Assembly (NCBI RefSeq): GCF_036507355.1
Contig: NZ_AP027881.1
Source of the DNA: Escherichia coli
GTDB taxonomy: Bacteria > Pseudomonadota > Gammaproteobacteria > Enterobacterales > Enterobacteriaceae
Reading direction: 5' to 3' (one strand)
DNA: 6,346 nucleotides
Shown in pieces: positions 590 through 6,346 of the stretch. Made by a program: the position numbers and the translations under genes. Position 1 is the first letter of the stretch. Each line of letters begins with the position of its first letter. Below the pieces are notes generated by a model. The model had not been told where the DNA came from and did not search any database. It saw nothing but the letters and a program-made list of their open reading frames with translations.

Positions 590-817
590 ATCAAGGGATT
601 CGAAGTCATGCGAGCCCTGCGCAAAGGACAGGCTCGCCCCTGGTGCCTGCAGCCCGGCATCAGGGGCGAGGTGCGCCTTGTGGAGAGAGCTTTTGGCATT
701 GGGCCCTCGGCGCTGACGGAGGCCATGGGCATGCTCAACCACCATTTCGCAGCAGCCGCCTGATCGGCGCAGAGCGACAGCCTACCTCTGACTGCCGCCA
801 ATCTTTGCAACAGAGCC
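590..817 (+). mobile_element. Remnant (3' end only) of an IS6-family insertion sequence, distinct from IS26
   Basis: Frame starting at 590 translates to IKGFEVMRALRKGQA...GEVRLVERAF, matching the C-terminus of the IS26 transposase in this window (KGIEVMRALRKGQASAFYYGDPLGEMRLVSRVFEM) at protein but not nucleotide level. Stop at 761-763 is followed 54 bp later by TTTGCAACAGAGCC (804-817), 13/14 identical to the IS26 terminal inverted repeat, with the same stop-to-end spacing as IS26. Confidence 0.55.
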
Positions 818-938: not shown

Positions 939-966
939 GGTGCACGCAAGGGATGTTATGGTAAAT
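939..966 (+). other. XerC/XerD-type recombination core, site 1 (GGTGCACGCAA-GGGATG-TTATGGTAAAT)
   Basis: 28-bp site: 11-bp XerC-like arm, 6-bp central region, 11-bp XerD arm identical to the cer XerD arm as I recall it (TTATGGTAAAT). One of three direct copies in the window. Confidence 0.75.
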
Positions 967-1033
967 ATCGTTTATGTTGATTAACAAATTAAAAGATAAG
1001 ATTATTCCTACTTCTCTATTTTCTGGGGCTTTT

Positions 1034-1267
1034 ATGAAAAAGGTAATTCTCTCATTGGTTTTTCTGTCATCAGTAATTCTTGCTGGCTGCTCAAGCCAAG
1101 CAGGTCCATTTGTGACCAACATTAGCAGTGATGGTAGAGGTGGGCTTGTCGTTGAGAAATGTATGGTTCGCCTTGATAGAATGATTAATACCGTTGAATC
1201 ATCTAGCTGCACTAATTCAAGTATTACTCTGTCCTCACCATCTTCTAGCTCGACACTGACTCGTTAG
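1034..1267 (+). CDS. Small lipoprotein of unknown function, 77 aa, low GC
   Basis: ORF with signal peptide MKKVILSLVFLSSVILAGC (lipobox LAGC); GGGG 6 nt upstream of the ATG at 1034. The track ORF starts at 974, but that start has no SD and falls before the signal peptide. Ser-rich C-terminus. No family recognised. Confidence 0.55.
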   Translation: MKKVILSLVFLSSVILAGCSSQAGPFVTNISSDGRGGLVVEKCMVRLDRMINTVESSSCTNSSITLSSPSSSSTLTR

Positions 1268-1282
1268 ATTTCATGTTGCTAC

Positions 1283-1311
1283 TTGAGATTATTTAATTCA
1301 GCGGGTAGTCT
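1283..1311 (+). promoter_or_regulatory. RNA II (primer) promoter of ColE1-type replicon 1
   Basis: TTGAGA (-35), 17-bp spacer, TAGTCT (-10), positioned as in the pMB1 RNA II promoter (TTGAGA...TAATCT) just upstream of the RNA I terminator complement. Confidence 0.55.
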
Positions 1312-1321
1312 TTCGCTTGAA

Positions 1322-1425
1322 AAAGAAAAAACCGCCCTGCAAGGCGGTTTTTCGAAGGTTCTCTGAGCTACCAACTCTTTGAACCGAGGTAACTGGCTTG
1401 GAGGAGCACAGTCACCAAAACTTGT
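1322..1425 (-). ncRNA. RNA I antisense copy-number control RNA, replicon 1
   Basis: Complement of the RNA II 5' region. 5' end placed by alignment to pMB1 RNA I (ACAGTATTTGG vs ACAAGTTTTGG here); 3' end is the hairpin ACCGCCTTGCAGGGCGGT plus U-run. Ends approximate to about 5 nt. Confidence 0.7.
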
Positions 1426-2432
1426 CCTTTCAGTTTAGCCTTAACCGGCGCATAACTTCAAGACTAACTCCTCTAAATCAATTACCAGTGGCTGCTGCCA
1501 GTGGCGCTTTTGCATGTCTTTCCGGGTTGGACTCAAGTCGATAGTTACCGGAACAGGCGCAGCAGTCGGACTGAACGGGGGGTTCGTGCATACAGTCCAG
1601 CTTGGAGCGAACTGCCTTCCCGGAACCGAGTGTCAGGCGTGGAATGAGATAAACGCGGCCATAACAGCGGAATGACACCGGTAAACCGAAAGGCAGGAAC
1701 AGGAGAGCGCACGAGGGAGCTACCAGGGGGAAACGCCTGGGATCTTTATAGTCCTGTCGGGTTTCGCCGCCACTGATTTGAGCGTCAGATTTTGTGATGC
1801 TTGTCAGGGGGGCGGAGCCTATGGAAAAACGGCAACGCCGCTTCCTTTTCTCTTCCTTTCCCAATTTGATTGCTACTAGCCTACTCCTTTACTTCTGAGC
1901 CGGTAACGCCCGCCGCAGTCTCACGTCCGGAGCGTAGCGACCGAGTGAGCGAGGAGGCGTAATTTCATCGACTCCTGCATTTTTCACTTACGCCCTACAG
2001 CTACATTTTTCACCTGCCAGGGGTCAGTTTGGATATAGAGAATTATTGTACGGTAAGCCTGTTTTTTGAACAGACTTACCTATAGCAATAGGGTGTACTC
2101 CCGCGCTATACGGCATTTTCAGAGGTTTGACCTTAATCGGATAACCTAAATGCGATACTGCAAGAGCGACAACTTAAAAGCGATAGCCACTGACGCAAAA
2201 TCAACCCCTTACGAACCAAGATTGGTTAAATAATGCGCTTAACGTACAAAAATTTCCGATCTCCAAACTGACCCCTTCTTCGCCTCTTATGTTTCTCGAA
2301 TGAATCGATGGGGACAGGAAATGTTTTGTGGCCACCGCCGCTTCGCCGGCACCACAAAACTGTCGGACAAGATGTGTTTTTGGAGTACCGCCGGCACCAA
2401 AAACATTTCATCAGGCGCAGCCTGATACCCTG

Positions 2433-2452
2433 AATTTCGTACGTACGAAATT
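2433..2452. repeat. Perfect 20-bp palindrome AATTTCGTACGTACGAAATT
   Basis: Exactly self-complementary; lies in a gene-free tract that also holds two tandem hairpin units (2323-2360, 2375-2405). Confidence 0.8.
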
Positions 2453-2850
2453 TTGCTTTTGTTCAGATCGAGGGCAGGATTCGCAAAGTGCTGGCGTTTG
2501 TGCTCACATCCTTTAGACGTTGCGATGCAGGATAGGGCAGACGCCGCAAAATGACGTCATTTGCGGTATCTGCCCCGAAAACAGAATGTTTTCTCCTGAG
2601 CCTGCAGCTGGCTCTCAGAACCCCTACCGCCTCGCAAAGCTCGTTGCTCAACGCCTCACGACCGCACAGTAAACTGTGCACCCGTTCACCGTTATCGATG
2701 GGGTTCAGCGAGCCTTTTGAGCAGTTCGCAGGATTTTAGCCGCTAAAATTCCGGCCAGGCATGTTCGTGCATAGCCATGCAGATGCGCAGAAATCATCAG
2801 GCGCGTTTTTCAGGGGTTGGTGCTGGGAAAGGTGCCGGAAACGGCCCGTT

Positions 2851-2878
2851 CGCCTCAAAATGGCTCTGAGGCGTTTTC
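2851..2878 (+). terminator. Hairpin plus T-run just upstream of Xer site 2
   Basis: CGCCTCA-aaatggctc-TGAGGCG followed by TTTTC. The same GCCTCA/TGAGGC stem recurs before site 3 and in degenerate form before site 1, so it may be part of the recombination-site module rather than only a terminator. Confidence 0.35.
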
Positions 2879-2881
2879 AGC

Positions 2882-2909
2882 GGTGCGGGCAAGGGATGTT
2901 ATGGTAAAT
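2882..2909 (+). other. XerC/XerD-type recombination core, site 2 (GGTGCGGGCAA-GGGATG-TTATGGTAAAT)
   Basis: Same architecture and identical central region and XerD arm as site 1; direct orientation. Confidence 0.75.
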
Positions 2910-2944
2910 TGCTCATCACAGTAGCCAGTTAAGCAGAGGTTAGA

Positions 2945-3271
2945 ATGTTTGGGTTTTTTAAGAAAAAAAAGCTCTATGAAGAGATCTGTAAAGATGCAGG
3001 GATGGCTTTATCTGATGGGTTATTGGCCCAAGGCTTAGCGAGAAACAAAATAGAAGCAATGGGGGCTGGTGCTGTTTTTAGTCAGTCTTTGAGGGAGGCT
3101 GTTTCTCAAGGTTACAAGTCTTCTGATGCGATTGCTGAAGCAAGAAAAAACACATCTCATCATCTAGCTGCTAGAGGGTTTGATTTTGAAACGATCGCAA
3201 GTGCGATTGATGTTTTTTGTACTGCTACAGCATTTGAATCAATGTTAGATCTTGCTCGCGATAAAGGCTGA
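2945..3271 (+). CDS. Hypothetical cytoplasmic protein, 108 aa, low GC
   Basis: ORF with good SD (GAGG 6 nt upstream of ATG); no signal peptide; lysine-rich N-terminus (MFGFFKKKK). Bracketed by Xer sites 2 and 3. No family recognised. Confidence 0.6.
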   Translation: MFGFFKKKKLYEEICKDAGMALSDGLLAQGLARNKIEAMGAGAVFSQSLREAVSQGYKSSDAIAEARKNTSHHLAARGFDFETIASAIDVFCTATAFESMLDLARDKG

Positions 3272-3303
3272 ATATCGAGAGGAGTGACGGGTTGTTATCA
3301 TTA

Positions 3304-3330
3304 GCCTCAGAGTAGATTTGAGGCCTTTTG
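3304..3330 (+). terminator. Hairpin plus T-run after the 108-aa ORF, immediately upstream of Xer site 3
   Basis: GCCTCA-gagtagatt-TGAGGC followed by CTTTTG, 33 nt after the ORF stop; same stem as the site 2 hairpin. Confidence 0.4.
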
Positions 3331-3333
3331 GGC

Positions 3334-3361
3334 GGTGTATGCAGGAGATGTTATGGTAAAT
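3334..3361 (+). other. XerC/XerD-type recombination core, site 3 (GGTGTATGCAG-GAGATG-TTATGGTAAAT)
   Basis: XerD arm identical to sites 1 and 2; XerC arm and central region diverged; direct orientation. Confidence 0.7.
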
Positions 3362-3428
3362 ATGTCTTATTGAGAATATTCTTACTAATGCGCGGTTTTT
3401 TTCTAATTTTTAAATGGATGACTTAAAA

Positions 3429-3806
3429 ATGAAGGCAAGATTTTTTGCAGCCTTGCTTATTACTTTTTTTCTTTCTGGATGTGCGACAGAGGCGGGATAT
3501 CAAAGGGTATTAAATTCATGGATGGGATCTACTGATGTGAGCTTGATTCAGTCATGGGGGCCGCCTCAGCAATCTTATGAACTTTCTGGCCATACCTTCC
3601 TAGTTTATTCAAATAGCTCTAGCTCTTATATACCTGGAGTGGCTCCTACCTATCAGACTACGTTTATTGGTAATACAGCGTATACAAACACCTATGGCGG
3701 CTCGCCCGGCTTTAATGTTAGCTACTCATGTACTACGACTTTTGAGGTTGTTGGCGGGAAAATTGTTAACTGGCGTTATCAGGGCAACAATTGCACATCG
3801 CGTTAG
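3429..3806 (+). CDS. Lipoprotein of unknown function, 125 aa, low GC
   Basis: Signal peptide MKARFFAALLITFFLSGC (lipobox LSGC). Start at 3429 preferred over the track start at 3414 because it begins the signal peptide. Mature part is Ser/Thr/Tyr/Gly-rich with two Cys near the C-terminus. No family recognised. Confidence 0.65.
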   Translation: MKARFFAALLITFFLSGCATEAGYQRVLNSWMGSTDVSLIQSWGPPQQSYELSGHTFLVYSNSSSSYIPGVAPTYQTTFIGNTAYTNTYGGSPGFNVSYSCTTTFEVVGGKIVNWRYQGNNCTSR

Positions 3807-3973
3807 TCGTGTGTCCAATCGTAGTATCAGGTGAAGATACAATAGAGAACTTAATACCCTCTTGGTGGGTATATAAAAACCAAGATGAGCGTAGCGACCT
3901 TCTTTAAACTCGTTCCTTGTGTGTCTTACCCTGCAAAAGGTTTGATTGTGTGGGTGTAAATGAAATCGTTGCG

Positions 3974-4003
3974 TTGACAGTTACATGTGACGAGATGTAG
4001 TCT
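3974..4003 (+). promoter_or_regulatory. RNA II (primer) promoter of ColE1-type replicon 2
   Basis: TTGACA (-35), 18-bp spacer, TAGTCT (-10), directly upstream of the RNA I terminator complement. Confidence 0.55.
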
Positions 4004-4011
4004 CTAAAACG

Positions 4012-4112
4012 AAAAAACCGCCCTGCAAGGCGGTTTTTTCGAAGGTTCTCTGAGCTACCAACTCTTTGAACCGAGGTAACTGGCTTGGAGGAGCGCAGTC
4101 ACCAAAACTGTT
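4012..4112 (-). ncRNA. RNA I antisense copy-number control RNA, replicon 2
   Basis: Same reasoning as replicon 1 RNA I; terminator hairpin ACCGCCTTGCAGGGCGGT plus U-run at the 3' end. Ends approximate. Confidence 0.7.
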
Positions 4113-4693
4113 CGTTTAGTTTAGCCTTAACCGGCGCATAACTTCAAGACTATCTCCTCTAAATCAGTTACCAGTGGCTACCGCCAATGGCGATTTGTCG
4201 TGTCTTTCCGGGTTGGACTCAAGACGATAGTTACCGGAACGGGCGTGGTAGTCGGACTGAACGGGGGGTTCGTGCATACAGTCCAGCTTGGAGCGAACTG
4301 CCTACCCGGAACTGAGTGTCAGGCGTGGAATGAGATAAACGCGGCCATAACAGCGGAATGACACCGGTAAACCGAAAGGCAGGAACAGGAGAGCGCACGA
4401 GGGAGCCACCAGGGGGAAACGCCTGGGATCTTTAAGTCCTGTCGGGTTTCGCCACCACTGATTTGAGCGTCAGATTTCGTGATGCTTGTCAGGGGGGCGG
4501 AGCCTATGGAAAAACGCCCGCCGGGGCGTGGCCTTTTCGCCCTTGTCCTTAGCTTTCGTTATGCTTACCGTTACGTTATCTGCTTATCCTCCCTCCGCTC
4601 GCCGCAGACTCATGACCGAACGGAGTGAGCGAATGAGCGAGGAAGCGGAAAACAATCAGAACGTACAGTAAGCACTTTCGCGCCGGGGCCTTC

Positions 4694-4885
4694 ATGAACA
4701 AACAACAAAAGACAGCCGTTAACATGGCTAAATTCATCCAGGATCAGTCCCTGCTTCTTCTGGACAGGCTTAATGAGCTGGATCTGGATCATGAGGCTGA
4801 TTTCTGCGAGAAACTCCATGAGGATGCGGAACGCCTTTACCGAAGCCTGTCAGCGCGCCTGAATGAGCAGCAGGACGGTGCGTAA
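4694..4885 (+). CDS. rop: Rop/Rom (RNA one modulator) homolog, 63 aa
   Basis: Same length as pMB1 Rop, with clear similarity along the whole protein as recalled (MTKQEKTALNMARFIRSQTLTLLEKLNELDADEQADICESLHDHADELYRSCLARF vs MNKQQKTAVNMAKFIQDQSLLLLDRLNELDLDHEADFCEKLHEDAERLYRSLSARL here). Confidence 0.85.
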   Translation: MNKQQKTAVNMAKFIQDQSLLLLDRLNELDLDHEADFCEKLHEDAERLYRSLSARLNEQQDGA

Positions 4886-4898
4886 TGTCTCCGTTCTG

Positions 4899-4918
4899 GG
4901 TATTACCGGAGTAATACC
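4899..4918. repeat. Perfect hairpin/palindrome GGTATTAC-cgga-GTAATACC downstream of rop
   Basis: 8-bp perfect stem with 4-nt loop. A second palindrome with the same half-site, TATTACC-cc-GGTAATA, lies at 4957-4972. Confidence 0.6.
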
Positions 4919-5188
4919 GGCATCGCCTTAATTTTCATTGTCTTAGCGCTTAACATTATTACCCCGGTAATACCCACAATCCCTGTATTTTTTCTTTTTT
5001 ATTTATTTTTCATGAAGTTGCGATGAAAATCGCAGCTGCGTTAGGTGTATGACCATTTTGAGGTTGAAAAATAATCAACCATGGCGGGTGATTTACGCAG
5101 GTTAAGGGGAGATCGTGACAAAAAAAAGCGTTCCTCACTGTATCGTTCATGCCTGCATGAACGGGTTATTCTTCCTGACTACAGAATT

Positions 5189-5340
5189 ACATCGCTCCTT
5201 CAGTTCATACATCACTTTTACAACACTTTTACAACACTCCTTCGGCCTGTACATCACTTTTACAACACTTTTGCATCACTTTTACATCATTTATACATCA
5301 CTTTTACATCATTCCTTCAGCTCATACGTCACTTTCATCC
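5189..5340. repeat. Tract of roughly 11-bp tandem repeats (core ACAxCACTTTT), iteron-like
   Basis: Repeated units ACATCACTTTT / ACAACACTTTT / GCATCACTTTT / ACATCATTT across about 150 bp, bracketed by direct repeats CCTTCAGTTCATACATCACTTT (5197-5218) and CCTTCAGCTCATACGTCACTTT (5314-5335). The ORFs the track predicts here are repeat-translation artefacts. Confidence 0.7.
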
Positions 5341-5526
5341 TCTGTGCCATTTGTACATCACCCCCTTCCTGAACGTGCTGACAGCGGGTTTTCCGGCTGC
5401 GCCGGCAACGCTTCACGGCCACGCAATAAATTGCGTCCCCGTTCACCGTTTTCGGATGGGAAGAACGCCGGAAACAGGACTTCCCCTGGCTGAATGGTGT
5501 GAATTTCCGCGCTATGCACTTGCGCG

Positions 5527-6346
5527 GGCACTGTTGCAAAGTTAGCGATGAGGCAGCCTTTTGTCTTATTCAAAGGCCTTACATTTCAAAAACTCTGCTT
5601 ACCAGGCGCATTTCGCCCAGGGGATCACCATAATAAAATGCTGAGGCCTGGCCTTTGCGTAGTGCACGCATCACCTCAATACCTTTGATGGTGGCGTAAG
5701 CCGTCTTCATGGATTTAAATCCCAGCGTGGCGCCGATTATCCGTTTCAGTTTGCCATGATCGCATTCAATCACGTTGTTCCGGTACTTAATCTGTCGGTG
5801 TTCAACGTCAGACGGGCACCGGCCTTCGCGTTTGAGCAGAGCAAGCGCGCGACCATAGGCGGGCGCTTTATCCGTGTTGATGAATCGCGGGATCTGCCAC
5901 TTCTTCACGTTGTTGAGGATTTTACCCAGAAACCGGTATGCAGCTTTGCTGTTACGACGGGAGGAGAGATAAAAATCGACAGTGCGGCCCCGGCTGTCGA
6001 CGGCCCGGTACAGATACGCCCAGCGGCCATTGACCTTCACGTAGGTTTCATCCATGTGCCACGGGCAAAGATCGGAAGGGTTACGCCAGTACCAGCGCAG
6101 CCGTTTTTCCATTTCAGGCGCATAACGCTGAACCCAGCGGTAAATCGTGGAGTGATCGACATTCACTCCGCGTTCAGCCAGCATCTCCTGCAGCTCACGG
6201 TAACTGATGCCGTATTTGCAGTACCAGCGTACGGCCCACAGAATGATGTCACGCTGAAAATGCCGGCCTTTGAATGGGTTCATGTGCAGCTCCATCAGCA
6301 AAAGGGGATGATAAGTTTATCACCACCGACTATTTGCAACAGTGCC
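5527..6346 (-). mobile_element. IS26 (IS6 family), complete 820-bp copy
   Basis: 14-bp terminal inverted repeats GGCACTGTTGCAAA at 5527-5540 and its reverse complement at 6333-6346; length 820 bp; encodes the canonical Tnp26 sequence. The element ends at the last base of the window. Confidence 0.95.
5579..6283 (-). CDS. tnp26: IS26 transposase Tnp26, 234 aa
   Basis: Translation MNPFKGRHFQRDIILWAVRWYCKYGISYRELQEMLAERG...GEMRLVSRVFEM matches IS26 transposase as recalled. The track ORF carries a 6-codon upstream extension (MLMELH) that is probably not translated. Confidence 0.95.
   Translation of the reverse strand: MNPFKGRHFQRDIILWAVRWYCKYGISYRELQEMLAERGVNVDHSTIYRWVQRYAPEMEKRLRWYWRNPSDLCPWHMDETYVKVNGRWAYLYRAVDSRGRTVDFYLSSRRNSKAAYRFLGKILNNVKKWQIPRFINTDKAPAYGRALALLKREGRCPSDVEHRQIKYRNNVIECDHGKLKRIIGATLGFKSMKTAYATIKGIEVMRALRKGQASAFYYGDPLGEMRLVSRVFEM

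Follow-up and report, generated by a model that had tools for sequence, protein, structure and literature searches.

The window, that is the whole stretch of 6,346 nucleotides analysed here (Escherichia coli, assembly GCF_036507355.1, contig NZ_AP027881.1), is a fusion of two ColE1-like plasmids at their Xer cores. Each replicon has an RNAI gene on the - strand, at 1323–1423 in replicon 1 (Rfam RF00106, 92.6 bits; origin near 1876) and at 4009–4110 in replicon 2 (RF00106, 95.8 bits; origin near 4562), and RNAII therefore lies on the + strand in both. A complete ColE1-like plasmid of the pPK5074-2kb type occupies 939–2881 (+ strand; 1,943 bp) between directly repeated Xer cores 1 and 2, and matches with 99.7% identity over 1,977 nt, which corresponds to one plasmid length plus the repeated core. 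Core 1 (939–966, + strand) reads GGTGCACGCAA-GGGATG-TTATGGTAAAT and core 2 (2882–2909, + strand) reads GGTGCGGGCAA-GGGATG-TTATGGTAAAT. The window ends in a complete IS26 of 820 bp (5527–6346), with terminal repeats at 5527–5540 and 6333–6346 and its transposase on the - strand. The 3' fragment of an IS6-family element, which we take to be IS6100, is found at 600–817 (+ strand) and ends in GGCTCTGTTGCAAAG read on the - strand; matches to it in more than 5,000 plasmids stop at 817–820. Two copies of a short module, the subject of this analysis, are located about 770 nt downstream of the replicon 1 origin (copy 1, 2649–2697) and about 840 nt downstream of the replicon 2 origin (copy 2, 5406–5454).

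Both copies contain an inner hairpin held between two flanks. In + strand text copy 1 reads CAACGCCTCACGACC-GCACAG-TAAA-CTGTGC-ACCCGTTCACCGTTATCG, with the hairpin at 2664–2679, and copy 2 reads CAACGCTTCACGGCC-ACGCAA-TAAA-TTGCGT-CCCCGTTCACCGTTTTCG, with the hairpin at 5421–5436. The original prediction had described two homologous stretches of about 75 bp with an internal palindrome. The homology is borne out by a repeat finder and by alignment, and the palindrome is present in both copies, but the conserved unit is only about 45–49 nt long: 2649–2697 and 5406–5454 are 80% identical over 49 nt, outside them the copies are only weakly alike, and the predicted bounds of 2632–2705 and 5395–5465 are too wide. 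The inner stems differ at three positions, every one a compensatory double change, and the flanks, CAACGC(C/T)TCACG and CCCGTTCACCGTT, are almost identical. Family-wide the hairpin is enclosed by two invariant flanks, CAACGCYTCAC and CCGTTCACCGTT (flank segments also written AACGGTGAACGG and GTGAGGCGTTG). On the - strand of copy 2 an extended hairpin is formed by AACG/CGTT, ACGG/CCGT and the inner stem, with a folding energy of -15.7 kcal/mol (z -2.27; 3 of 200 shuffles are equally stable); the structure-forming strand of copy 1 is probably the - strand as well.

The fusion of two small plasmids at their Xer cores accounts for the two copies of the module, copy 1 having come with the 939–2881 plasmid. 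Copy 1 ends 176 nt upstream of core 2 and copy 2 ends 62 nt upstream of IS26, in keeping with the predicted distances of about 180 and 60 bp. The suggestion that IS26 had removed a fourth Xer core fails, as intact relatives (L001) run directly from the position of 5526 into that of 818 and onward. The 8-bp sequence CTTGCGCG is duplicated at 5519–5526 and 818–825, a target duplication from which it follows that a segment ending in IS26 and IS6100 entered at the border of the ARG box. This insertion, of which the 600–817 fragment forms the other edge, split the cer-like site of copy 2, and the missing Xer partner of that copy is core 1. The left accessory arm of the site (5455–5526, + strand) was cut off by IS26 and has CTTGCGCG as its final 8 nt, while the displaced right part (818–966, + strand) starts with CTTGCGCG and continues with an ARG-box-like sequence at about 822–840 and with core 1. 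With the duplication removed, core 1 begins 201 nt after CCGTTCACCGTT of copy 2. Recognition of the module allows the window to be read as an Xer-site cointegrate that was later split by IS insertion, and not as a site that lost a core.

The module recurs far beyond chance. At least 2,752 PLSDB plasmid records match copy 2 (61 nt), and in metagenomes and genomes a flank-only pattern that leaves the hairpin free was found on at least 120 and on 54 contigs, respectively. None of the PLSDB records inspected has a gene-table entry for the module; an Rfam 15 scan returned nothing at 2632–2705 or 5395–5465 even at E ≤ 1, with only the two RNAI genes passing, and a literature search with the module sequence gave unrelated primers only. 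Carriers include RNAII-primed, ColE2-type, qnrD-type and rolling-circle replicons, among them tiny plasmids encoding no common protein, and the module is kept in plasmids of 1.8–2.5 kb with almost no spare DNA. Even between plasmids that are less than 70% identical in the surrounding DNA the flanks do not vary, and the module is conserved more strictly than the neighbouring ARG box.

Between the invariant flanks more than 15 different inner stems were found. Over 58 distinct copies 96.7% of the hairpin cells are paired and double changes affect 6 pairs, a degree of covariation reached by none of 500 shuffles; in the divergent copy L186 the outer stem is also compensated, from AACG/CGTT to AGCG/CGCT. 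The mismatches of transition type, spread over five pair positions, are strongly asymmetric, being G.T on the minus strand in 66 cells and on the plus strand in 3. Rare variants in the flanking cer DNA carry no such strand bias (G>A 15, C>T 12, A>G 8, T>C 7), and a general mutation bias is therefore ruled out as the source of the asymmetry. The hairpin is real and is under selection on one DNA strand only, the minus strand.

Module copies that lack a cer site adjoin transfer origins of the ColE1, RP4/R64 or MOBQ type. The alternative that the module is oriT-like was thus right as to its neighbourhood and wrong as to the nick site itself, since the module contains no ATCCTG, TAAGTGCGC, CTGG^CTTA, GTCTATAGC or similar nick motif (a caret marks the nick). 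Such motifs are located 41–390 nt from the module, each with an inverted repeat of its own. The hairpin strand is the nicked strand at 39 of 39 loci with a ColE1-type nic and at 32 of 34 with a MOBQ nic, the exception being one MOBQ family (L072, L093) that is nicked on the other strand. Among 111 distinct contexts the RP4/R64-class motif YATCCTGY is found on the hairpin strand, on the nick side and within 400 nt in 17, where about 2.7 would be expected by chance, and on the opposite side of the module in one. About three quarters of the distinct contexts, including that of copy 2 in the window, have no recognized nick motif within 400 nt. The module was also considered as the cognate MOBQ oriT of qnrD plasmids and rejected, the real inverted repeat with TAAGTGCGC being located upstream of mobA.

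Two orphan sites in the window belong to this picture, both on the - strand. The first, an RP4/R64-class oriT-like site at 2527–2566, consists of CCGCAAA(A)TGACGTCATTT(T)GCGG at 2544–2566 followed by CGTCTGCCCTATCCTG^CAT. Its nick would fall between 2528 and 2527, 3' of copy 1 on the - strand, if placed by ATCCTG^C, which we take to be the nick of RP4. The same layout recurs at L065, L106, L156, L015 and L158. The second, at 2310–2360, is of the R64 type, GTTTTGTGG...CCACAAAAC and then CATTTCCTG^TCCCC; this last sequence is presumably a match to the R64 nick, and the site is conserved in many loci. A functional R64-type oriT has been reported in small plasmids of the pEC156 type (PMC4743918).

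These arrangements raise the question of whether the module is an accessory component of transfer origins, either a second hairpin on the transferred strand that serves relaxosome assembly or termination and recircularization, or a hot spot of site-specific recombination by relaxases. As with the inverted repeats of RP4, R64, R1162 and ColE1 bom, the module is a hairpin on the transferred strand, 5' of the nick, and this is so for three oriT classes; in some lineages merely 41 nt separate it from TATCCTG^C. In addition, BLAST alignments of many plasmids begin exactly at CAACGC, and relaxase-mediated recombination would explain why homology often breaks at the module edge. Unlike those inverted repeats, however, it lacks a nick consensus of its own and is tied to no single relaxase family, and the inverted repeat proper to the origin lies between module and nick, over a distance that varies from 41 nt to 1.5 kb. 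Its sequence is unchanged beside the unrelated relaxases MOBHEN, MOBP-like and MOBQ, whereas sites for relaxases and their accessory proteins are family-specific. It sits just beyond the ColE-type oriT, which is annotated as 89 bp (PMC9282650). In MOBQ plasmids the nick is 1.5 kb away and the cognate oriT is elsewhere, as in pCGF41, many carriers have no recognizable nick nearby, and base pairing between the two module flanks sets them apart from the nick regions that relaxases use, which are single-stranded. An auxiliary role at oriT is accordingly rather unlikely. A block of about 260 bp that includes the module is common to at least 270 plasmids, and the module marks one edge of an oriT–cer backbone at which these plasmids recombine.

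The expectation that an Xer core routinely follows the module was confirmed for 118 of the 176 copies with enough flanking sequence, mostly 200–201 nt after CCGTTCACCGTT; the other 58 have no core within 420 nt. Core 2 begins 200 nt after CCGTTCACCGTT of copy 1, and the accessory region of this cer/mwr-like site, delimited by alignment with ColE1 cer and a motif scan, is at 2698–2881 (+ strand), with an ARG-box-like sequence at 2766–2784. The module might then be the outer boundary of a cer/mwr subfamily, extending the PepA-wrapped arm or shielding the synaptic complex from transcription and replication arriving from the origin. It adjoins the accessory sequences in the same orientation, lies directly upstream of the characterized mwr site in pJHCMW1, and keeps its core spacing even where the intervening sequence has diverged past recognition; moreover, cer is always oriented the same way relative to RNAII (PMC2831885). 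Nevertheless, the module spans -233 to -185 from the core and so falls outside the accessory region, which measures about 180 bp in cer-type sites (PMC2699498). A motif scan of both copies found no ARG or ArcA box in the module (the best ARG match has 7–8 of 16 informative positions), and the ARG-like boxes of both sites, placed by the scan at 2766–2783 and 822–839, lie outside it. ColE1-type cer sites work without the module, which is absent from ColE1 and six other cer-bearing plasmids (seven sampled); conversely, at least 25 contexts have the module and no cer, and qnrB19 plasmids keep it at nic, 540 nt from the Xer core. Finally, selection on one strand with tolerance of wobble pairs is not predicted for a site bound by protein as duplex, and the module is no intrinsic terminator on either strand, so that a boundary function is unlikely. 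Position, motif content, occurrence without cer and one-strand selection likewise speak against its proposed identity as accessory DNA for ArgR, PepA or ArcA, and on the reading preferred below the module is no part of the Xer machinery. Its position next to cer would follow from the compact backbone of small plasmids, in which oriT, module and cer are joined in one orientation. A resemblance of the right arm and flank to degenerate Xer half-sites was also considered and discarded, being weak and unconserved across variants.

A hairpin that tolerates G.U pairs on the minus strand would suit RNA as well as DNA, and the module could in principle belong to an antisense or convergent minus-strand transcript, as its 3' structure or as an element governing its processing or stability, possibly bound by an RNA chaperone. 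In a ColE2-like group a convergent minus-strand ORF does end at the module and is followed by a terminator-like hairpin and T-run, and a ProQ/FinO-family gene adjoins the module in Rosenbergiella plasmids. Such a role is nonetheless improbable: there is no promoter-like site on the minus strand near copy 1 and none is conserved in an alignment of 47 sequences, the promoter side is occupied by unrelated sequences (cer, mobC or an ORF), most contexts have no T-run after the hairpin, no Rfam family matches, and the fixed co-orientation with replication and nick sites would not be predicted. Least probable is that the module is now a functionless, hitch-hiking palindrome inherited with the oriT–cer backbone; it is never annotated and its distribution partly tracks plasmid lineages, but the invariant flanks, the compensatory exchange of stems, the 66:3 wobble asymmetry and the retention in very small plasmids all speak against this.

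Several other identities were discarded. In a scan of 2400–3000 the module yielded neither a promoter nor a terminator; as an intrinsic terminator the module would have its T-run 12 nt away or none. The A-rich loop of some variants resembles a -10 element by eye, but no -35 is present at usable spacing and other loops (GGA) are unfit. An integron attC-like site is not supported either, as copy 1 starts with RYYYAAC and copy 2 does not, and the 3' end is unlike GTTRRRY. The compensatory stem changes also argue against a remnant of the C-terminal codons of rop, which had been considered for ACGGTGAA, common to the module and ColE1.

The module has the same orientation as RNAII in all of 145 module–origin pairs, 25 of them without an Xer core, and its minus strand is the leading-strand template in every one. 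In p15A-like and qnrB19 plasmids it comes after TGACGCGCCTGCGGCTTGTC, 92 nt beyond nic. The ColE1 homologue of that segment, TGACGCGCCCTGACGGGCTTGTC, is continued by a large hairpin on the H strand, which we take to be ssiB/rriB. An indirect statement in the literature backs this identification (PMC3167613). The minus-strand flank GTGA(A/G)GCGTTG aligns with ColE1 GTGAGCGGATG. A ColE1-type hairpin was found at 1 of 181 module loci and the module in none of 7 plasmids bearing that hairpin; in this small sample, chosen by similarity, module and hairpin exclude each other, the module occupying the locus that the hairpin has in ColE1/pBR322. This exclusivity could also stem from two plasmid lineages and not from equal function. 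The module shares with known single-strand initiation signals a bias to one strand, a fixed orientation, a conserved single-strand structure and the position of a known ssi.

From these comparisons of sequence and position we tentatively favour the view that the module is an ssiB-like single-strand initiation signal, and neither an Xer accessory site nor a nick site. It would act in cis, in single-stranded form, on the window's minus strand; this strand serves a ColE1-type replicon as leading-strand template (the 'H' strand), and conjugation nicks and transfers the same strand. On it the module folds into an irregular hairpin of about 45 nt. The outer stem is AACG/CGTT, a purine-rich internal loop (GTGA/GARG) separates it from the middle stem ACGG/YYGT, and at the top is a variable inner stem of 6–7 bp with a TTTA loop. 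Synthesis of the complementary strand would begin at this hairpin through a priming system of the host, as an equivalent of the ssiB/rriB of ColE1 and pBR322. This might happen on the transferred strand arriving in a recipient, where priming is possible because the module lies 40–390 nt 5' of the nick and near the last-entering end, or on the leading-strand template exposed during vegetative replication. The association with at least three unrelated oriT classes, the separate location of the oriT in pCGF41 and the carriers without a common protein point to a host factor as the reader, possibly the PriA primosome or DnaG.

Some features fit this signal less well. Known primosome sites are weak in consensus whereas the module flanks are invariant over 11–12 nt, so a different reader is possible; the module has no conserved CTG start triplet as in G4-type sites, and the near-constant spacing of 200 nt to the Xer core is left unexplained. 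Further points against it are the rolling-circle family L003, the MOBQ family nicked on the other strand and the many contexts with no recognized nick motif. We give less credence to a second formulation, which remains doubtful. The module would then be a generic, host-read 'establishment' element of single-stranded DNA on the transferred strand, with its own sequence-specific reader, neither a PriA n'-site nor a G4-type primase site, perhaps coupling complementary-strand synthesis to the adjacent Xer site, and common to small enterobacterial plasmids with unrelated replication systems and transfer origins.

Among the genes on small ColE1-like plasmids are qnr, aminoglycoside-resistance and other resistance genes, and these plasmids spread by means of the transfer machinery of larger ones. 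For plasmids without a primase gene, the conversion of the incoming single strand to duplex in a new host is, to our knowledge, poorly understood. The large number of plasmid records, the strict conservation, the selection on the transferred strand and the independence of relaxase type make the module a concrete and testable candidate for this complementary-strand step after transfer, or for the leading-strand polymerase switch in ColE1-type replication.

Among known single-strand signals, the sso of rolling-circle plasmids and the ssi-like palindrome of pHW126, pIGRK and pIGMS31 resemble the module as structured elements of small plasmids that are specific for strand and orientation, and sso and ssi are non-essential. 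Loss of the pHW126-type ssi raises copy number and multimerization (PMC6854812; bioRxiv 10.1101/2022.12.05.519187). Unlike an sso, the module is apparently on the non-displaced strand in L003, the sole rolling-circle family that has it. A role as the single-strand origin of L003 was not supported, as the replication origin there is probably nicked on the plus strand; this family also carries inversely oriented oriTs.

The ssiB-like reading preferred here draws on a closer likeness. The ssiB/rriB of ColE1 and pBR322 is the site at which the factor Y/n'/PriA primosome assembles on the H strand. The module is on the same strand, leading-strand template and transferred strand alike, has the same orientation to RNAII and nic, and occupies the same locus after a homologous TGACGCGCC..GGCTTGTC segment just past the ColE1-type nic; the resemblance of GTGAGCGGATG to its GTGA(A/G)GCGTTG is also on that strand. 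The two differ in form, since the ssiB hairpin is about 70 nt long with a 7-bp GCTTGTC/GACAAGC stem and a 21-nt loop, whereas the module has 45 nt, a short variable stem and invariant flanks. They differ too in setting, the module being found also in ColE2-type, qnrD-type and rolling-circle plasmids and directly abutting cer.

The module is present twice in the window, at 2649-2697 (copy 1) and 5406-5454 (copy 2), and the repeat finder and alignment match the two copies over 49 nt with 80% identity. Each contains an internal palindrome, at 2664-2679 in copy 1 (GCACAG-TAAA-CTGTGC) and at 5421-5436 in copy 2 (ACGCAA-TAAA-TTGCGT). The stems differ at three positions, each changed on both sides so that pairing is preserved, and the flanks, CAACGC(C/T)TCACG and CCCGTTCACCGTT, are near-identical. 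The original prediction was right in the duplication, the palindromes and the distances (about 180 nt from copy 1 to Xer core 2, about 60 nt from copy 2 to IS26), but its length of about 75 bp was too great, the conserved unit being approximately 45-49 nt.

Rfam detects RNAI genes at 1323-1423 (replicon 1) and 4009-4110 (replicon 2), both on the minus strand. The window therefore holds two replicons of the ColE1 type; RNAII is on the plus strand in each, and their origins lie near 1876 and 4562. Three Xer cores, each formed from a XerC arm, a 6-bp spacer and a XerD arm, lie at 939-966 (core 1), 2882-2909 (core 2) and 3334-3361 (core 3). Aligning doubled pPK5074-2kb (1,943 bp) with 933-2909 gives 99.7% identity over 1,977 nt, which is one plasmid length plus a repeated core, so that 939-2881 is a whole 1,943-bp ColE1-like plasmid between direct-repeat cores 1 and 2. 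The window is thus a cointegrate in which two small plasmids are fused at their Xer sites. Core 3 is without an ARG box or module, and its upstream likeness to the other sites covers only about 35 nt (a GCCTCAGAG...TTTGAGGC hairpin); small ORFs at 2945-3271 and 3414-3806 have a cassette-like placement between cores.

The second plasmid runs from 2910 to 5526, resumes at 818, and is similar to L001, an intact relative of 2,459 bp. The 8-bp CTTGCGCG is found at 5519-5526 and 818-825, and the segment that it brackets has a complete IS26 (5527-6346) at its start and, at its end, an IS6-family terminal repeat (804-817, within 600-817), presumably that of IS6100. Matches to the window from more than 5,000 plasmids end at this repeat. 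An insertion with IS26 and IS6100-like ends thus split the cer-like site of copy 2 at the left border of the ARG box, which together with the core now lies at 823-966. With the duplication removed, core 1 begins 201 nt past CCGTTCACCGTT of copy 2, and core 2 begins 200 nt past CCGTTCACCGTT of copy 1. The idea that IS26 had deleted a fourth core does not hold: nothing was deleted, the expected core is core 1, displaced by the insertion, and L001, which lacks the insertion, is colinear with 2910-5526 and then 818 onward, with a single CTTGCGCG. It is unusual for hybrid IS26/IS6100 ends to come with a clean target duplication.

The family was searched with a pattern of the two flanks only, leaving the hairpin unconstrained, and matches were obtained in at least 120 metagenome contigs and 54 genome contigs. 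A 61-nt copy 2 query matched at least 2,752 PLSDB records, in none of which the module is annotated as a feature; the PLSDB gene tables inspected hold no annotation of it, and Rfam no matching family. Carriers are chiefly Klebsiella, Escherichia, Enterobacter and Salmonella, and the majority of records are 2-10 kb. The retrieved loci provide 190 copies and about 58 distinct sequences, with more than 15 forms of the inner stem (e.g. ACGCAA, GCACAG, CGCGAAA, CGGAT(T), CAAATAAA, GGCAA, TCAGAT, GCTCAG) and a loop of TAAA, AAA or GGA. Copy-2-type modules on tiny low-coverage contigs of unrelated taxa (Pseudovibrio, Cutibacterium, Microbacterium, Rhizobium, Streptantibioticus and Acetobacter; including L127, L128, L132, L140, L145, L162, L166 and L178) are probably assembly contamination by small enterobacterial plasmids. 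PQ800155.1 ('Klebsiella phage Kpn_R1', 3,748 bp) also carries the module and is probably a small plasmid, not a phage. In a ColE1-like plasmid of Rosenbergiella epipactidis (L131) a ProQ/FinO-family gene (Pfam PF04352, E 2.5e-20) begins about 25 nt past the module.

Across 58 distinct 51-mers, standard pairs fill 96.7% of cells and double changes occur at six pairs. This covariation was reached by 0 of 500 shuffles, and in slid controls the paired fraction falls to 23-42%. Transition-type mismatches are strongly one-sided: 66 cells are A.C on the plus strand, equivalent to G.T on the minus strand, versus 3 of the opposite kind, and the G.T mismatches occur at five pair positions and in several unrelated stem families. 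Rare variants of the adjacent cer sequence have a symmetric spectrum (G>A 15, C>T 12, A>G 8, T>C 7), so the asymmetry reflects selection on the minus-strand structure and not mutation pressure. On that strand the module reads 5'-AACG GTGA ACGG N [stem-TTTA-stem] N YYGT GARG CGTT-3'. The middle stem, ACGG/YYGT, contains 19 of the G.T cells, and the invariant T of GTGA has a possible partner in the R of GARG (T-A or T.G). The outer stem, AACG/CGTT, shows no variation in the pattern-selected set and a compensatory change to AGCG/CGCT in a divergent copy (L186); it is less certain because pJHCMW1 has one C.A mismatch there. As minus-strand DNA, copy 2 is predicted to fold into the same extended hairpin (-15.7 kcal/mol, z -2.27).

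Module and RNAII point the same way in all 145 module-origin pairs, of which 25 lack cer, and in four further loci checked with Rfam; the minus strand is therefore the leading-strand template. Copies without an adjoining cer are found in several settings. In p15A-like plasmids (L144, L159, L174, L142) the module lies 92-162 nt past a ColE1-type nic and ahead of a mobC-like gene; three qnrB19 plasmids (L182-L184) have it at the same place, 540 nt from their own core. It also lies 18 nt past the stop of a 177-aa ORF in ColE2-type/MOBQ plasmids, and is present in qnrD plasmids and in the Rep_1 rolling-circle plasmid L003. In 39/39 loci the ColE1-type nic has TAAGCCAGTATACACTCC on the plus strand and hence its nick on the minus strand. 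Among 34 loci with a MOBQ nic region (an inverted repeat plus ATAAGTGCGC), 32 have it on the minus strand; many of these come from a single plasmid family, and one family has the reverse orientation. Of 111 distinct contexts, 17 have the RP4/R64-class motif YATCCTGY, with its own inverted repeats, on the minus strand within 400 nt to the left; chance would give about 2.7, and the right side has only 1. L003 (2.09 kb, Col(BS512) type) has at about 1110-1210 two GTCTATCCTGCAT sites in inverse orientation, an arrangement similar to the pair of oriTs reported for pBuzz.

Along the minus strand of the window the order is 5'-cer ... module 1 ... CCGCAAATGACGTCATTTTGCGG CGTCTGCCCTATCCTG/CAT ... GTTTTGTGG..CCACAAAAC CATTTCCTG/TCCCC-3', the slashes marking nicks that we place by analogy with RP4 and R64. 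Copy 1 is thus about 120 and 330 nt 5' of two orphan oriT-like sites on the same strand, one RP4-like (2527-2566; inverted repeat, then CTATCCTG/CAT) and one R64-like (2310-2360; inverted repeat, then CATTTCCTG/TCCCC). Between them, at 2433-2452, is a perfect 20-bp palindrome, AATTTCGTACGTACGAAATT, whose relatives keep AATTTCG...CGAAATT around a variable centre (GACGCGTC, TCCGGA); it resembles the binding site of a dimeric protein. The plasmid holding these two orphan sites is typed non-mobilizable, and the window has no mob gene. Functional oriTs of the R64 and F types are on record for small plasmids (PMC4743918), and the oriT of pJHCMW1 is mobilised by RK2 functions (PMC6764390). No recognised nick is found near copy 2; in its place, immediately origin-side at 5166-5340, are at least seven 11-bp repeats (TACATCACTTT / TACAACACTTT). 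Other 11-bp repeats (GATAGCAAACA) hold the equivalent relative position in L069 and L073, which points to either bent DNA or phased protein binding.

The module is structured and acts on one strand, which serves as the leading-strand template and is also the strand transferred; it depends neither on relaxase family nor on any protein encoded by the plasmid. The reading that we tentatively favour is that it may be an ssiB-like single-strand initiation signal. The data establish its structure, strand, orientation and surroundings and its exclusivity with the ColE1-type hairpin; that priming takes place there, and which host proteins would read the signal, is what we infer. At 40-390 nt 5' of the nick it lies near the strand end that enters the recipient last, so a primer made there could copy nearly the whole plasmid in one run, and in vegetative replication it could serve the leading-strand switch to Pol III. 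Weak points are flanks unusually invariant for a primosome site, the oppositely oriented MOBQ family, the probable position of the L003 module on the non-displaced strand, the many contexts (the majority) without a recognised nick, and a conserved 200-nt spacing to the Xer core that this reading does not account for. A role as an auxiliary hairpin of the transfer origin, or as a hot spot of recombination, would agree with the strand and with the sharp homology break at CAACGC, but is doubtful given the independence from relaxase family.

An Xer core routinely follows the module, as the original prediction envisaged: one is near it in 118 of the 176 copies with enough flank, and 200-201 nt downstream in 93 of these. 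The DNA from module to ARG box is almost unalignable, yet constant in length within a few bases (47 units, <90% mutual identity), and in pJHCMW1 the module (3081-3125) is directly upstream of mwr (core 3315-3342). This spacing would suit a boundary element of cer/mwr sites. Such a role is unlikely, since the module falls outside the accessory region of about 180 bp (PMC2699498), contains neither an ARG nor an ArcA motif, is absent from ColE1-type cer, exists in copies without cer and is under selection on one strand only. A minus-strand RNA element would explain the wobble pattern but is very unlikely, with no promoter near copy 1, no conserved promoter in the family alignment and inconsistent context among copies. 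That the module has no function is hardly credible, being contradicted by the covariation.

The reading as an ssiB-like signal draws on comparison with ColE1 (L002), where the nic region is followed by TGACGCGCCCTGACGGGCTTGTC and a large hairpin, GCTTGTC...GACAAGC, which has GTGAGCGGATGCC on the minus strand as its loop and the rop stop codon at its end. We take this hairpin of ColE1/pBR322 to be the H-strand factor Y (n') site, rriB/ssiB. An ssiB described as 'displaced' in a pUC-type vector (PMC3167613) fits the hairpin segment, found in pUC on the far side of the polylinker. In p15A-like plasmids the homologous TGACGCGCCTGCGGCTTGTC leads instead into the module, which thus occupies the ssiB locus; the ColE1 loop motif can be aligned with the module's minus-strand flank, GTGA(A/G)GCGTTG. 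Module and ColE1-type hairpin are mutually exclusive in the sampled plasmids: the hairpin occurs in 1 of 181 module-bearing loci and the module in none of seven plasmids with the hairpin (sampled at 78-100% identity), in which cer sites are present. This exclusivity could be phylogenetic. The module resembles known kinds of element, namely ssi signals, oriT-adjacent hairpins and the cer neighbourhood; we found no earlier description of the module itself in the literature. At the ssiB position L185 and L187 carry GGGAAA-GAA-TTTCCC, a diverged hairpin, and a hairpin of some kind stands there in every ColE1-like plasmid inspected; in module carriers, strand-specificity points to the H strand.
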